A stretch of 64,000 nt of DNA from Methanothermococcus sp. Ax23 (GCF_049075655.1 NZ_CP157522.1:192001-256000); one strand, 5' to 3'. Numbered from the stretch's first letter, positions 3,825-55,865 are shown. Numbers and translations: made by a program. The notes: generated by a model from the sequence alone, not told the origin.

Positions 3825-4025
3825 TTATTCAACCGTAGCAAAGCGAGTGGGCTATAAAATCCGTTAGGATTTTATTCAATCGGAGCGAAGCGGAGAGCTA
3901 TAAAAATCCCAAAGGGATTTTTATTCAATCACATCGAAGATGTGAGCTATAAAAATTACTTCGTAATTTTTATTCAACCACGAGCAAAGCGAGTGGGCTA
4001 TAAAATCCGTTAGGATTTTATTCAA
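3825..4025. repeat. Tandem array of four 47-49 nt double-hairpin modules
   Basis: Units 3833-3879, 3880-3928, 3929-3977, 3978-4025, each hairpin1-GCTA-hairpin2-TTCAA; the last unit overlaps the guaA stop codon. Confidence 0.9.
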
Positions 4026-4950
4026 ATTCAATTGTTGCCGGTGGTTTATCTGTAATATCTAAAACAACCCTTGCAACATTTGGAACTTCTGATGTGATTC
4101 TTTTACTTATTCTTTTCAATACACTGAATGGGAGCTCAGGCACACTTGCAGTCATTGCATCAAGGGATTCAACAAACCTTACTGCAACTACCCAATTGTA
4201 TTCTCTTATGTCTCCTTTAACTCCTGTTGCCTTTGTATCAAGCACAGCGGCAAAATACTGCCATAAATCTTTATCGAGACCTTCTTTTTCTATCTCTTCC
4301 TCAACTATGGCATTTGCTTCCCTGCACACTTCCAACTTTTCCTCTGTGATTTCCCCTAAAATTCTTACTGCAAGACCGGGTCCTGGGAATGGCTGTCTGT
4401 TTGCTATTTTATCTGGAAGCCCCAATTCTCTTGCCAATATTCTTACCTCATCTTTATATAATTCTCTCAACGGCTCAACAACTTCAAGCACCATTCCGCT
4501 TGGCAATGCTATGTTGTGGTGTGTTTTAATGTCCCCTTCACTTTCTATCCAATCTGGTGCAATAGTTCCCTGAACAAGAACCTCTTCACCGTTTTCCTTT
4601 GCAACTTCCTCAAATACTTCAATAAATAATCTTCCTATTATCTTCCTTTTCTCTTCTGGGTCATCTACTCCCTTTAATTCCTTTAAAAATAAGTCCTTTG
4701 CATTAATTATTTTTAAGTTAAGTCCCATATCTTCTTTAAATATTTTGTAAATTTCCTCTGCTTCATTTTTTCTCATAAGTCCTGTATCAACAAAGACTGC
4801 TAAAAGTCTGTCCCCTATTGCCCTGTCTGTAAGAACTGCGGCTACTGAACTATCTACGCCACCACTAAGTGCTATTATTGCCTTTTTGTCCCCTATTTGT
4901 TCCTTTATTTCTGAAATGGATTCTTCAATGAATTTTTTAGCATCAAACAT
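4018..4950 (-). CDS. guaAB: GMP synthase subunit B (ATPPase)
   Basis: [30 protein letters not shown]. Confidence 0.97.
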
Positions 4951-5048
4951 ATAATATCACCATTTATATTCCATATTAGATTTTTAATCCACATTATAAT
5001 AATCTAATTTATTTTTTATTTTAATTTTATTTATTTCTTAATTATTTC

Positions 5049-6677
5049 TTATTTATTTTTTTGCTTATTCTTTAAAGAAGCCTTAACAAGCCCATCAAAC
5101 AATGGATGCGGTTTATTTGGTCTTGATTTAAATTCAGGGTGTGCCTGTGTAGCTATGAAATATGGATGACTTGGGAGCTCTACAAACTCCGCAAGTTTTC
5201 CATCTGGTGATGTTCCAGAAATAATCAACCCATTTTCTTCAAGAATTTTGTGATATTCTGGATTTACCTCATACCTGTGCCTGTGCCTTTCATTTACCTC
5301 TGTTTTTCCATACAATTTGTGTGCAAGAGTTCCTTCCTTCAAAATTGCAGGATATGCCCCAAGTCTCATTGTTCCTCCCTTCTCCTCTATTTCCCTCTGC
5401 TCTGGGAGAAGGTCTATTACAGGATATGGCGTTTCCTCATCAAACTCTGTGGAATTTGCATTCTTCAAATTACAGACATTTCTTGCAAACTCAATTACTG
5501 CACACTGCATACCTAAACATATTCCTAAAAATGGGATTTTATTTTCCCTAGCATATTTAACGGCATTAACCTTTCCATCTACGCCCCTTTCGCCAAATCC
5601 GCCGGGAATAAGTATTCCATCTAAAACTTCATTTTCTCTATAATTATTGAGTATCTCTTTATAATTGCCAGTTTCAAGCTCTTCTGAACTTATCCACTTT
5701 ATATTAACTTTTGTATCATTTTTAGCCCCTGCATGAACTAATGCTTCCATTATACTCATATAGGCATCCTTTAATATAACATACTTACCTACAATACCTA
5801 TTGTAATTTCATTTAGTGGGTTTATTATTCTATCAACCATTGCCCTCCATTCCTTTAAATCAGGCTCTGCATTATTTATCTCATTTAATTTAAGCTTTTT
5901 TGCTATTAATTTCCCTATTCCTTCTCTTTCAAGATTTAAAGGAACTTCATAAATCGTCCTTGCGTCTCTTGCTTCAATTACTGCCTCTTTCTCAACATCA
6001 CAGAATAAGGCAAGTTTTTCCCTAGTTTTTTCACCTATTGGTATTTCAGTTCTACAAACCAATATGTCCGGTTGGATACCTATTCCGCGGAGCTCCTTTA
6101 CACTGTGCTGAGTTGGTTTTGTCTTTACCTCACCAGCAGTTCTTATGAATGGTAGAAGCGATACATGGATATATAATACATTATCCCTTCCTACGTCCTT
6201 CTTAAATTGTCTTATTGCCTCTAAAAACGGAAGGCTTTCAATATCTCCAACAGTTCCTCCAATTTCCACTATTGTAATGTCGCTTTCTTTTCCTAGTGTT
6301 TTTATTCTATCCTTTATCTCGTTAGTAATATGCGGGATTACCTGAACAGTTTTTCCTAAATAATCTCCTCTCCTCTCTTTTGAAAGGACGCTCCAATATA
6401 CCTTTCCTGTGGTAATGTTGTTATCTGCTTTTAAACATATATCAACAAATCTTTCATAGTTTCCAAGGTCTAAATCGGTTTCCCCGCCGTCATCGGTGAC
6501 AAATACCTCACCGTGTTCATAGGGGGACATGGTTCCTGCATCTATCTGTAAATAGGGGTCTATTTTTATCATGTTTATTTTAAATCCTCTTGCTTTTAAA
6601 AGTCTCCCTATGGATGAAGCGGTAATACCTTTTCCTAATGAAGAAACCACACCACCAGTAATAAATATATACTTCAT
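5049..6677 (-). CDS. pyrG: CTP synthase
   Basis: [32 protein letters not shown]. Confidence 0.98.
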
Positions 6678-6831
6678 CTTATCTCCTCGAATAATAAATA
6701 ACTAATAACATATAACAAATAACATATAACAAATATATAACCAACAGCTTACTTAAAAATATAAAGAATATATCTTATTGAAAATTATATAAAAATATAT
6801 GCAAATAAAAAAATAAAATTTAAAAAAAGAA

Positions 6832-7179
6832 TTATGCTACATTAGCACCTTGAATGGTTTTTTGTAATGATTCTTGTAAATCCATTAATCTCTTCTGCAT
6901 TTTTTCTTCCTGTTTTTCCAATGTTTTAGTCCTTAATTTTAAGGTTTCCAATTTTTCGTTTAATTCTTCTTCTATTTCTTTTTTATTTCTTTTTACAAGT
7001 ATGCCGCCAGCCATCTTATATACTTCCTCTGACTGTGATTTTCCCATCTCTTCCAACGCCTTTTCCATTTCTTTTATTTGTGCTTCTATCTGCTGTTTTT
7101 GGAAAACAATAGCCTGCAACTGCTGTTGAAGTTGTTGAAACTGCATTAATTGGTTTTGAACATTTGGTGGTAATTCCAT
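6832..7179 (-). CDS. pfdB: Prefoldin beta subunit
   Basis: Q-rich coiled coil, [10 protein letters not shown] hairpin; conserved superoperon position. Confidence 0.93.
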
Positions 7180-7243
7180 AATTTCCCTCCTTTTTTATTT
7201 ATAGTATTTTATATAACGTATAAATATTATATATCTATTATAT

Positions 7244-53791: not shown

Positions 53792-53991
53792 GCGTATGCC
53801 CTCCAATGAAACATATGAATATAACTTCGAAGTAGTTTATTCTATTAATATAGTATTGATAAATTATTTAAAATAAGAGACAATATATATCTACAACCTA
53901 TTTGATTATTAGATGTTTTATGTAATTAGTGTATCATTTTATTTTTATTTATTATTTATATTTTCTGATTTATTAATATAGAGGTGAAATA

Positions 53992-54852
53992 TTGATACTT
54001 TTAGATGAAAACACAAAAGCAATAGTTCAAGGAATTACCGGAAAGCAGGGAAGTTTCCATACAAAAAACATGCTTGAATGTGGAACAAACATAGTTGCAG
54101 GAGTAACTCCTGGAAAAGGCGGAACAGAAATTTATGGAATTCCAGTATATGATACAGTTGCGGAAACTGTTGAGAAACACGGTGCAAATGCCTCAGTAAT
54201 ATTCGTCCCTGCACCATTCGCAAAGGATGCAGCCTATGAAGCAATTGATGCAGGTATTGAACTTGTTGTAATTATTACAGAACATATTCCAGTCCATGAT
54301 ACAATAGACATACTTAACTATGCAAAACATAAAGGCGTTAAAGTAATTGGACCAAACACTCCGGGAATTGCATCCCCAAAGGTTGGAAAATTAGGTATCA
54401 TTCCTATGAAAGTTTTAAAAGAAGGAAGGATAGGAATGGTTTCAAGAAGTGGGACCTTAACCTATGAAATTGCAAATGAATTAATAAGCAATGGATTTGG
54501 GCAGTCATCATGTATAGGAATAGGAGGAGACCCTACAATTGGTCTTGGATATATTGAAATACTTGAAATGTTTGAAAATGATGAAGATACAGATGCTATT
54601 GTAATGATTGGAGAAATAGGAGGAAGTAATGAAGAAATAGCCGCAGAATATATTAAAAAAATGAAAAAACCAGTGATAGCATATATTGCAGGTCAGTCAG
54701 CACCAGAGGGAAAAAGAATGGGACATGCCGGAGCAATTATTGAGAGGGGTGTGGGAACAGCAGAAAGTAAAATGAATACATTAAAAGATGCCGGAGCTCA
54801 TGTTGTAAAGAGGATTTCAGAAATACCATCGGTATTAAAAGAAGTGTTATAA
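53992..54852 (+). CDS. sucD: Succinyl-CoA synthetase alpha subunit
   Basis: [27 protein letters not shown]. Confidence 0.96.
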
Positions 54853-55156
54853 TATTATAATTTGATTTTTTAAATTATATCTCTTAATTGGCAAGTTCTT
54901 AGAGAAATAAAATGGATTTACTAAAAAAGTTTTTAAGAAAATTTGTAAATTCGCTGATTAATCTGCCTACATAAATTTATTAATTTTTTATAATAAGGAT
55001 GATTATTCAACATATATTAAGAATGAAGTAAAATTAATTTTAAAAAATTATTTTATGTCTTCTTATTTTATGGTTTAATTCTCTCTTCCCAATAATATCT
55101 CCAAAATAGCACATATACTTTTATTTTTTCCAAATGATTATTTCAAAAAAATAAAA

Positions 55157-55230
55157 TGGACTGGGCGGGATTTGAACCCGCGGCCTCCGCATAGCCAATG
55201 CGGCGATCTCCCAGTCTGATCTACCAGCCC
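55157..55230 (-). tRNA. tRNA-Ala(GGC)
   Basis: GGGCTGG/CCAGTCC-A acceptor with G3.U70; anticodon arm CCGCA-TTGGCTA-TGCGG; T-loop TTCAAAT. Confidence 0.96.
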
Positions 55231-55493
55231 TATAACACGTGACTTCTAAGTGATTAATAATATATAAAATTTTTGGTTTGCATATGATAATAAGATAATA
55301 AATGATGAATAATGTTGGTTATATATAATTATATAAAAAGGGAGGGGGATTATGAAAATACATAGTGAGGATTTTGATGTCATAATTATTGGAGCAGGTC
55401 CAGCAGGACTTTTTGCCGCGTATGAGCTCGCAGAAAATAGCATGTTTAAGATTTTGATAGTTGAGAAAGGTTTTGATATAGACAAAAGAATAT

Positions 55494-55865
55494 CTGACCT
55501 ACTCCAACGAGTGAACTCGTTGGGTTCTCGCTTACGGTAGTAAGCGAGCAACGAAATCACGAAGTGATTTCGTCTAATTTTAGTAGGGTTTAACCCTACA
55601 CGGGTGGCCAAGCCCACTACCCCTACCCATTAATGGGTTCAGGGCTACCTTTTGAACTTCCAACCACTACCAGCGGTAGAGTTTTCACTAACCCTACCCA
55701 TAGATACTTGGACTGGTAGCGTTACTTACTATTAATCTTCTCATATTTATATTTTACTACTTACTAGCCGATATAATGTCCGCCTCTCATCCAATCTCAT
55801 AAGAGATTTTACAAAACTATGTTTTGTATAACGATTAAAATCGTTGGCTTTCTCGGCGGTTTATC
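55494..55865 (-). mobile_element. Non-autonomous IS200/IS605 miniature element (PATE-like, 372 bp)
   Basis: On the minus strand it follows TTAC; LE guide AAAG before hairpin CCAACGA..TCGTT[insert]GG; RE GAAC-CCAACGAG.TTCA.CTCGTTGG...TCAG; no ORF. Confidence 0.85.
55528..55577 (+). repeat. Double-hairpin module abutting the right end of the mini-IS
   Basis: TCGCTTACGGTAGTAAGCGA-GCAA-CGAAATCACGAAGTGATTTCG-TCTAA. Confidence 0.75.

Follow-up and report, generated by a model that had tools for sequence, protein, structure and literature searches.

What moves units of 45-57 nucleotides (nt), each built of two unlike hairpins, into the genes, spacers, and resident transposable elements of an archaeal genome, and are such units mobile elements in their own right? 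The stretch that raises this question is a 64-kb piece of Methanothermococcus sp. Ax23 DNA (NZ_CP157522.1:192001-256000; hereafter the window), in which a preliminary description made from the sequence alone had reported at least nine copies of a conserved double-hairpin layout, here called the module. We trained a covariance model, R1, on 12 copies with both hairpins supplied as structure, and scanned the full 64-kb window with filters off. R1 recovered 9 of the 10 loci that had been named, at 21.6-67.8 bits (Table 1); the exception was a supposed degenerate copy at 53456-53501, which gave no match at E ≤ 1 and had no stable fold. As set out below, the modules are a small non-autonomous mobile DNA element, real and mobile, and the whole module inserts precisely, as an independent unit.

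At the named places, the layout reads hairpin 1, GC(T/A)A, an A-tract/T-tract hairpin 2, and T(T/C)(C/T)AA. As an element, a module comprises a 5′ hairpin, a 3-nt linker, the A-tract/T-tract hairpin, and a 4-nt tail. Its first base is T in 53 and its second C in 47 of 61 flank-distinct copies, and its last eight bases are T-Y-R-T-Y-Y-A-A; each of the two strands has a hairpin with a T-run behind it. Of 49 independent copies, 35 have a C-G(A/T)A(A)-G loop and 17 have GCGN(N)AGC. A GCGAAGC-type core is frequent in hairpin 1, and an excerpt of PMC13037366 supports the stability of the GCGNAGC mini-hairpin. We folded seven window copies and the 53456-53501 segment as single-stranded DNA and scored them against 200 shuffles. 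For six of the seven copies, z lay between -3.8 and -7.0 and none of the 200 shuffles was equally stable; the copy at 7624-7668 had a z-score of -2.7, with 2 of 200 equally stable.

Both module stems covary strongly. In a set of 67 matches (60 distinct) from the window's genome and its relatives, pairing cells amounted to 96.8% versus 77.7% in shuffles, and compensatory changes were seen at 13 of the 16 stem pairs, counts that lean towards the R1 structure, to which the alignment was fitted. The covariation score was 0.494, compared to 0.181 in shuffles, and was reached by 0 of 500 of them; with the partners slid it fell to 0.04-0.07, ∼10-fold lower than for the true pairs. These data bear out the earlier statement that the stems differ in sequence yet keep pairing. 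Linker and tail also go together (GCT with TCAA or TTAA, GCA with CTAA, GTA with CTGA), which may reflect just subfamily descent. A C/D-box small RNA was considered for the copies that end in CTGA and was rejected, as no consistent C box was visible by eye and an Rfam scan of the window matched no family except two tRNAs.

The evidence for mobility comes from filled and empty sites. Empty-site alleles with exact boundaries were found among paralogs and among orthologs, and six exact filled/empty junctions lacked a target duplication, with at most one ambiguous T; terminal inverted repeats are likewise absent from the module. At one site in a MITE (miniature inverted-repeat transposable element), 3 of 12 aligned copies were filled and 9 empty, the filled copies having 50 nt between GGGTTC and TTTTAG. 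The tnpB gene of an insertion sequence (IS) of 1.5 kb is divided by a 47-nt module into frames of 104 and 342 amino acids (aa) in seven copies, and two tnpB paralogs of the same IS that lack this module read through in frame. In another tnpB, a module of 45 nt lies in frame at a distance of 20 nt from the site of the 47-nt one. For the weaker intergenic copy at 52443-52491, no recognizable module was present at the matching place in genomes G003 or G012, where the region is too diverged for exact boundaries.

Modules also reside in housekeeping genes. The glutamyl-tRNA synthetase gene contains a 57-nt in-frame module (19 residues) in the region of the catalytic domain. The insert is present in none of 10 aligned relatives, including those at 92-93% identity, and the closest of them have a gene shorter by 57 nt. 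In-frame modules of 45 nt in an ATP-grasp gene and of 48 nt in the linker of a thiamine pyrophosphate (TPP) enzyme were each absent in 4 of 4 relatives, and a kinase-like gene has a 45-nt module at a site that aligns poorly in relatives; three of these four housekeeping inserts are confirmed against relatives, and the fourth is likely. Copies whose length is a multiple of three persist in frame within essential genes and must be translated. We considered a bulge-helix-bulge intron or translational bypass for the genic copies and rejected both: the housekeeping inserts, at 57, 48, 45, and 45 nt, are all multiples of three in open frames, the 47-nt copy plainly breaks tnpB, and the flanks offer no common pairing.

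The head-to-tail array of four modules, which Tandem Repeats Finder reports across 3825-4025 with a period of 49, 4.2 copies, and a score of 175, is missing from G012; there the target TTATTCAA is present and joined directly to ATTCAATTG. Since array modules 2 and 3 differ from modules 1 and 4 in both stems, their sequences point to separate insertions rather than duplication. Modules have entered other kinds of transposable element as well. In G015, of another genus, an IS605 with tnpA and tnpB has a 49-nt module at a distance of 7 nt from its left-end hairpin, a position that is empty in G024 and G032. An rve-type transposase gene of G017 holds two nearly identical modules (L009, 1072-1118 and 1509-1555), one between the helix-turn-helix (HTH) part (145 aa) and the integrase core (138 aa) and the other at the 3′ end, and a DDE_Tnp_1 gene of the window's own genome holds a 57-nt copy. 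The same insertion in the rve-type gene, with the same flanks, was observed in G034 (L006), a genome of another family.

We further determined the size and spread of the family. In the window's own genome, G000 (1.663 Mb plus a 7.7-kb contig, 32% G+C), a strict text pattern found 57 sites with 29 distinct sequences. R1 gave at least 138 matches at E ≤ 1 and at least 80 at E ≤ 0.001; these are lower bounds because scoring covered only 150 of the 1128 first-look candidates and additional copies were spotted by eye. With half matches on the reverse strand and rows beyond E ∼0.04 removed, 101 of the 138 were kept, 87 of them at least 44 nt long and lying in 49 independent flank contexts. Among 40 genomes of the order, scanned at E ≤ 0.001, R1 matched in 24, with a very patchy distribution: 80, 49, 25, 5, and 1 per genome in the window's own genus, with none in eight genomes; 71, 45, and 32 in two other genera of the same family (71 in G013 and 32 in G017); 0-6 per genome in a fourth genus; and 0-20 in the other family of the order. 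Such patchiness is like that of mobile DNA, and the further copies in G000 and its relatives uphold the earlier proposal of a structure-defined, non-autonomous element that has spread.

An identical 47-nt module was found at C1:1276529-1276575 of G000 and in G031, of the other family (stretches L054 and L056, 1501-1547), between unrelated flanks. Its presence in different contexts points to exchange between lineages, and the sequence identity suggests that module-bearing DNA was exchanged recently between those of G000 and G031. Viral contigs contained no exact match to the 30-nt module core, and the plasmid collection no match to the module. The module in G031 forms part of composite elements with three to four hairpins and more than 100 nt. 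We note that these include nested insertions (L074, ∼1430-1570, and L062-L076), in which a module sits within the 5′ arm of another module's second hairpin, after TGAAA, and that the nested composites have multiplied themselves.

In most cases, a module is inserted just behind a sequence that resembles its own 3′ terminus (T..T..AA), with a T following. Each insertion creates such a site anew, and head-to-tail arrays result. In the 49 contexts, T was found at -8 in 40, at -5 in 33, and at +1 in 42, and AA at -2/-1 in 18, a preference with no fixed tetra- or pentanucleotide. Scored for likeness to the tail, left flanks averaged -6.1, whereas 20,000 random 8-mers averaged -13.2 (p 2.5e-8, Mann-Whitney), and 15 of 47 flanks exceeded the 95th percentile of the control. 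The 8-mer one step further left was ordinary (p 0.84).

Modules have also landed time and again next to the end hairpins of IS200/IS605-type elements, with which they then spread. The 33-nt core of the module at 55528 occurs 23 times, always within one TnpB-derived MITE or IS. This MITE, of 377 bp, is a deletion derivative of the 1.5-kb IS, whose only gene is tnpB (Pfam OrfB_IS605, Cas12f1-like_TNB). As MITE copies exist with and without the 50-nt module, the latter is a guest of the MITE and not its end. In the window's TnpB IS, each of the three copies has a different module near the shared left-end hairpin, and each at another position, namely, inside the 3′ arm (7624-7668), 7 nt after the hairpin, and before it; the module at 8927 is common to all three copies, with shared flanks (C1:200927, 337711, and 1309758). 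In two MITE families, modules lie at distances of 4 and 8 nt from the right-end hairpin, and at least 13 of the 49 contexts lie in or beside IS-type elements. TnpB IS elements, MITEs, and, in relatives, IS605 with tnpA share these genomes with the modules.

How the modules move is less clear. The preliminary description had proposed spread by an HUH-type enzyme encoded elsewhere, and the traits of the module fit single-strand transposition of this kind, in that duplications and inverted repeats are absent, hairpins are present, the 5′ flank shows a preference, arrays run head-to-tail, and insertions cluster at IS200/IS605 hairpins. The same anatomy of single-strand HUH transposition is seen with TnpA of IS608 and ISDra2 and with the transposases (RAYTs) associated with repetitive extragenic palindromic (REP) sequences. 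Background on IS200/IS605 elements and on REP-associated transposases is given in excerpts of PMC2817692 and PMC3333891. In our favored reading, insertion would act on single-stranded DNA folded into the module hairpins, and a hairpin-recognizing HUH enzyme (Y1, TnpA/RAYT-like) would catalyze it in trans, cutting after the tail motif at the element's end and at the target. The enzyme would not be encoded in G000 today, having been lost or being supplied by a passing IS605, plasmid, or virus, and any role of the T-runs in termination or RNA stability would be a secondary one. We consider this explanation plausible and rate its chance as a little short of even.

A number of findings weigh against movement by an HUH enzyme in trans. 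Y1_Tnp (PF01797) had no match in G000, which is 98.9% complete, although the control was positive in 6 of 14 named genomes. Y1 genes were found in just 6 of the 40 genomes of the order (three intact, three broken) and in neither G013 nor G017, and module numbers across the order track neither Y1 nor serine-recombinase genes. A Y1 or RAYT gene flanked by modules was looked for, and only tnpB was found to be flanked; 15 sampled module loci of G013 had no recurrent neighboring gene family. Compared with IS608-type ends, hairpin 1 begins at the first base, where a left guide would find no space, hairpins 1 and 2 do not resemble each other, and cleavage would occur 4 nt, and not about 10, from the foot of the hairpin. 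Because the stems are free to vary in sequence, recognition by an enzyme would have to rest on shape, loops, and linkers alone. Some tail-like left flanks (TTATTCAA, TTGTTCAA) could be remnants of older modules, although the insertion sites in the glutamyl-tRNA synthetase gene and in G012 are ordinary conserved sequence. Orientation relative to the upstream gene showed no preference (16 sense, 14 antisense). A replication-strand bias was also rejected: module strands cluster by region, but the switch points miss the extremes of GC skew and gene strand (170 and 820 kb), and the clustering is no evidence because the breakpoints were picked after looking. The lack of a resident enzyme is itself not decisive, because an IS605-type MITE (14 full-length copies, 91-100% identity) multiplied in this genome also without Y1.

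Other known enzymes fared no better in the search. An IS607-type serine recombinase was rejected, with two copies in G000, none in G013, and several in a genus almost without modules. No IS110-type transposase was found in G000, and the 7.7-kb extra contig showed no HUH domain and no recognizable nuclease, with only a weak helicase-like match. As separate observations, this contig (C2; L120, 7732 bases) is plasmid- or virus-like and encodes two winged-helix-like proteins and a 668-aa open reading frame (ORF) with a weak DEAD-helicase match; its large ORF had no match in the plasmid collection. The two IS607-type elements of G000 lie at C1:46712-48640 (L123, 1315-3241), where a MerR-HTH serine recombinase (209 aa) is followed by TnpB (438 aa), and at C1:1511943-1512338, where the copy has an in-frame TAG.

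Several alternative explanations have to be weighed against movement by an HUH enzyme. The same mobile element could depend on an enzyme of an unrecognized kind, neither Y1, serine recombinase, nor IS110-type, that is host-encoded under another annotation or borne by a virus or plasmid. The layout unlike IS608-type ends would suit such an enzyme, as would the module-rich G013, which has neither a Y1_Tnp nor a Resolvase match, and the lack of both Y1 and IS110-type transposases in G000. We nevertheless regard this as unlikely, since no candidate gene was found beside modules, the 7.7-kb contig has no recognizable nuclease or HUH domain, and present-day absence is weak evidence when IS605-type MITEs multiplied without a resident TnpA too. 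A process with no transposase at all, in which replication stalls at the stable hairpins and the growing strand takes up the copy of a module located elsewhere by template switching at short homologies with the tail, appears improbable. It would account for left flanks that resemble the module's own 3′ end, for head-to-tail arrays, for junctions that never show a duplication, and for the missing resident enzyme. However, some joints have no tail match (GGGTTC| against ...TCTAA|, CCTTCTA| against ...GTCCAA|), the conserved -8, -5, and +1 positions are spaced apart and form no continuous microhomology, and exactly one whole module is added per event.

We judge it very unlikely that the modules are functional signals under selection (two-way terminators, RNA-stabilizing hairpins, or protein binding sites) whose mobility is incidental. 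Among the 101 copies, placed on a crude ORF map, 66 are intergenic, 23 lie inside ORFs, and 12 cross ORF ends; the intergenic share favors a signal, as do the hairpin-then-T-run on both strands and the location of 10 of 37 intergenic contexts between convergent genes, which make up about 15% of intergenic length. Against this, copies sit in frame in essential genes and others break transposase genes, the closest relatives lack modules at the same sites with nothing in their place, no orientation preference relative to the upstream gene was seen, and no Rfam family beyond the tRNAs was matched. Finally, the modules might be mere ends or internal fragments of catalogued IS200/IS605 elements, that is, remnants of MITEs or palindrome-associated transposable elements (PATEs). 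The confinement of all 23 copies of the 33-nt core to one TnpB-derived MITE or IS, and the share of contexts in or beside IS-type elements, would be expected if this were so. It is highly improbable all the same: MITE and tnpB copies occur both with and without the module, with exact boundaries, the module is unlike the end hairpins of resident IS elements, and it is found alone in housekeeping genes, intergenic DNA, and rve-type and DDE_Tnp_1 genes. The earlier note had named a match to catalogued IS or MITE ends as one of the findings that would speak against a new family, and the copy at 55528 proved instead to be a secondary 50-nt insertion in a MITE. A bolder view than movement by an HUH enzyme in trans is that the modules constitute a distinct class of micro-transposon, largely a parasite of IS200/IS605 hairpins that rides between species, is moved by a new kind of enzyme or by hijacked transposases, and adds peptides of 15-19 residues to essential proteins; we hold this as a speculative and rather unlikely proposition.

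The closest known relatives may be repeats from the same group of archaea. Suyama, Lathe and Bork (2005, FEBS Lett) reportedly described MJRE1-3 of Methanocaldococcus jannaschii, 141 palindromic elements of ∼100 bp, which are said to be mostly intergenic, with three inside genes without breaking the frame. By that account, they resemble the module in that both are hairpin-forming and mostly intergenic, with a few genic copies that keep the frame, as the modules do in the genes for glutamyl-tRNA synthetase (57 nt), the TPP enzyme (48 nt), and the ATP-grasp protein (45 nt). The composites of more than 100 nt in G031 fit the reported MJRE mean length of about 100 bp, and M. jannaschii would represent a sister lineage if the order of the modules is Methanococcales, the label used in the preliminary description. 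Modules and MJRE1-3 are probably of the same kind or kin, and the earlier statement that the family had not been described is, given these repeats, probably wrong. Excerpts of PMC2229807 and PMC2996958 cite the M. jannaschii repeats as in-frame selfish insertions. Generic hairpins were counted in two Methanocaldococcus genomes in PMC12306157, an excerpt of which does not describe the module family, and excerpts of PMC3733652, PMC3184786, PMC2817692, and PMC3333891 contain nothing on these archaea.

By the features that define REP sequences and bacterial interspersed mosaic elements (BIMEs) on the one hand and PATEs on the other, the module belongs to neither. It shares with the REP/BIME-RAYT system the character of short, abundant, clustered palindromes that are defined by structure and for which an HUH Y1 enzyme, reading a single-strand hairpin and a short motif, is the presumed mobilizer in trans (excerpts of PMC2817692 and PMC3333891). 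However, modules bear no GTAG (or CGTC) tag, have two unlike hairpins per unit, and occur inside genes too. REP/BIME units alternate in orientation whereas module arrays are head-to-tail (four units, 3833-4025), so the BIME likeness suggested earlier does not hold, and a RAYT gene, typically REP-flanked, is missing from G000, where only tnpB is module-flanked. With IS200/IS605 elements and their PATE or MITE derivatives, the module has in common the absence of terminal inverted repeats and of target duplication, hairpins near the ends, and oriented insertion by a preferred short sequence. The ends of PATEs and MITEs derive from a parent IS; those of the module do not, and it inserts into resident elements. 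It further differs from them in its length of 45-57 nt, in hairpin 1 at the first base, in its 4-nt tail, and in the lack of a cognate Y1 TnpA in G000.

Two more distant systems are similar in form. Paquin, Laforest and Lang are said to have described, in 2000, double-hairpin elements of fungal mitochondrial DNA. These elements and GC clusters likewise have two adjacent hairpins, intergenic and genic copies, and no known transposase; they are organellar and unrelated in sequence, so the likeness is one of form only. The Rickettsia palindromic elements (RPEs), reportedly about 100-150 bp and attributed to Ogata (2000), are also palindromic selfish repeats that lie in frame in housekeeping genes, are translated, and have no recognized mobilizing enzyme. 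They differ from the modules in being longer, bacterial, and unrelated in sequence, and we know of no link between RPEs and IS200/IS605 ends. The Rickettsia elements are cited in an excerpt of PMC2996958.

If this reading is correct, the modules are among the smallest DNA units with exact filled/empty proof of their own insertion in an archaeon. They would offer a workable system for studying the spread of orphan palindromic repeats without an obvious transposase (RPEs, MJREs, and many REPs), and their landing at IS200/IS605 end hairpins would provide a testable link to TnpA or to exposed single-stranded DNA. TnpB elements would moreover be the hosts of a layer of parasites that interrupt their guide-RNA regions. 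Glutamyl-tRNA synthetase and the other enzymes with in-frame copies would be natural experiments in the tolerance of proteins to insertion, and for annotation, modules would account for broken transposase genes and odd protein extensions. The features of the window are collected in Table 1.

Table 1. Modules and associated features in the 64-kb window, numbered from its first base
Feature	Position	Strand	Evidence or remark
Pre-existing target TTATTCAA before the array	3825-3832	+	Octamer joined straight to ATTCAATTG in G012, no array
Array module 1, 47 nt	3833-3879	+	R1 45.0 bits
Array module 2, 49 nt; hairpin 1 with GCGAAGC core and internal loop	3880-3928	+	R1 25.8 bits; fold
Array module 3, 49 nt; both stems unlike its neighbors	3929-3977	+	R1 31.5 bits
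Array module 4, 48 nt; near module 1 in sequence	3978-4025	+	R1 57.4 bits; DNA fold z -4.1
Module in 3′ arm of left-end hairpin of TnpB IS	7624-7668	-	R1 44.0 bits
tnpB, 416 aa, IS200/IS605-type, three genome copies	7747-8997	+	Pfam OrfB_IS605, Cas12f1-like_TNB, HTH_OrfB_IS605
Module at tnpB 3′ end, just 5′ of right-end hairpin (8975-8994)	8927-8974	+	R1 63.3 bits; in all three IS copies
Partial copy with just the linker, hairpin 2, and tail	40472-40504	+	R1 32.4 bits
Weaker intergenic copy, hairpin 1 of 5 bp	52443-52491	+	R1 21.6 bits, E 0.0015; fold z -3.9
Degenerate copy of the preliminary description, unsupported	53456-53501	+	No R1 match at E ≤ 1; no stable fold, z +0.77
377-bp MITE from 1.5-kb TnpB IS	55493-55869	- (tnpB sense)	14 full-length copies, 91-100% identity; interrupts FAD-dependent oxidoreductase gene
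50-nt module, 4 nt from right-end hairpin of MITE	55528-55577	+	R1 67.8 bits; filled/empty MITE copies

Some further observations were made in passing. The gene for a flavin adenine dinucleotide (FAD)-dependent oxidoreductase (55352-56755) has gene fragments on both sides of the MITE, and its frame also shifts near 56020-56030; it looks like a pseudogene. A second double-hairpin family, with another layout, is present at C1:46580-46650 of G000 and in at least seven other places (C1:256685, 535985, 827050, 1259654, 1316799, 1600250, and 1651048). Its first hairpin has a GAGCGATAGCGAG-type tip and its second is of the GCA.C-TTTTTTAAA-G.TGC type, and one copy lies directly upstream of an IS607-type element. 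On contig C1, GAGCTC exceeds all other palindromic hexamers in over-representation by a wide margin, occurring 2085 times versus about 124 expected by base composition (16.8-fold; e.g., window 4130-4140), and GCGGAGC(TC) occurs 140 times, mostly within genes. GATC palindromes are nearly absent from the same contig, with TGATCA found 13 times versus 569 expected and AGATCT 11 times versus 569.

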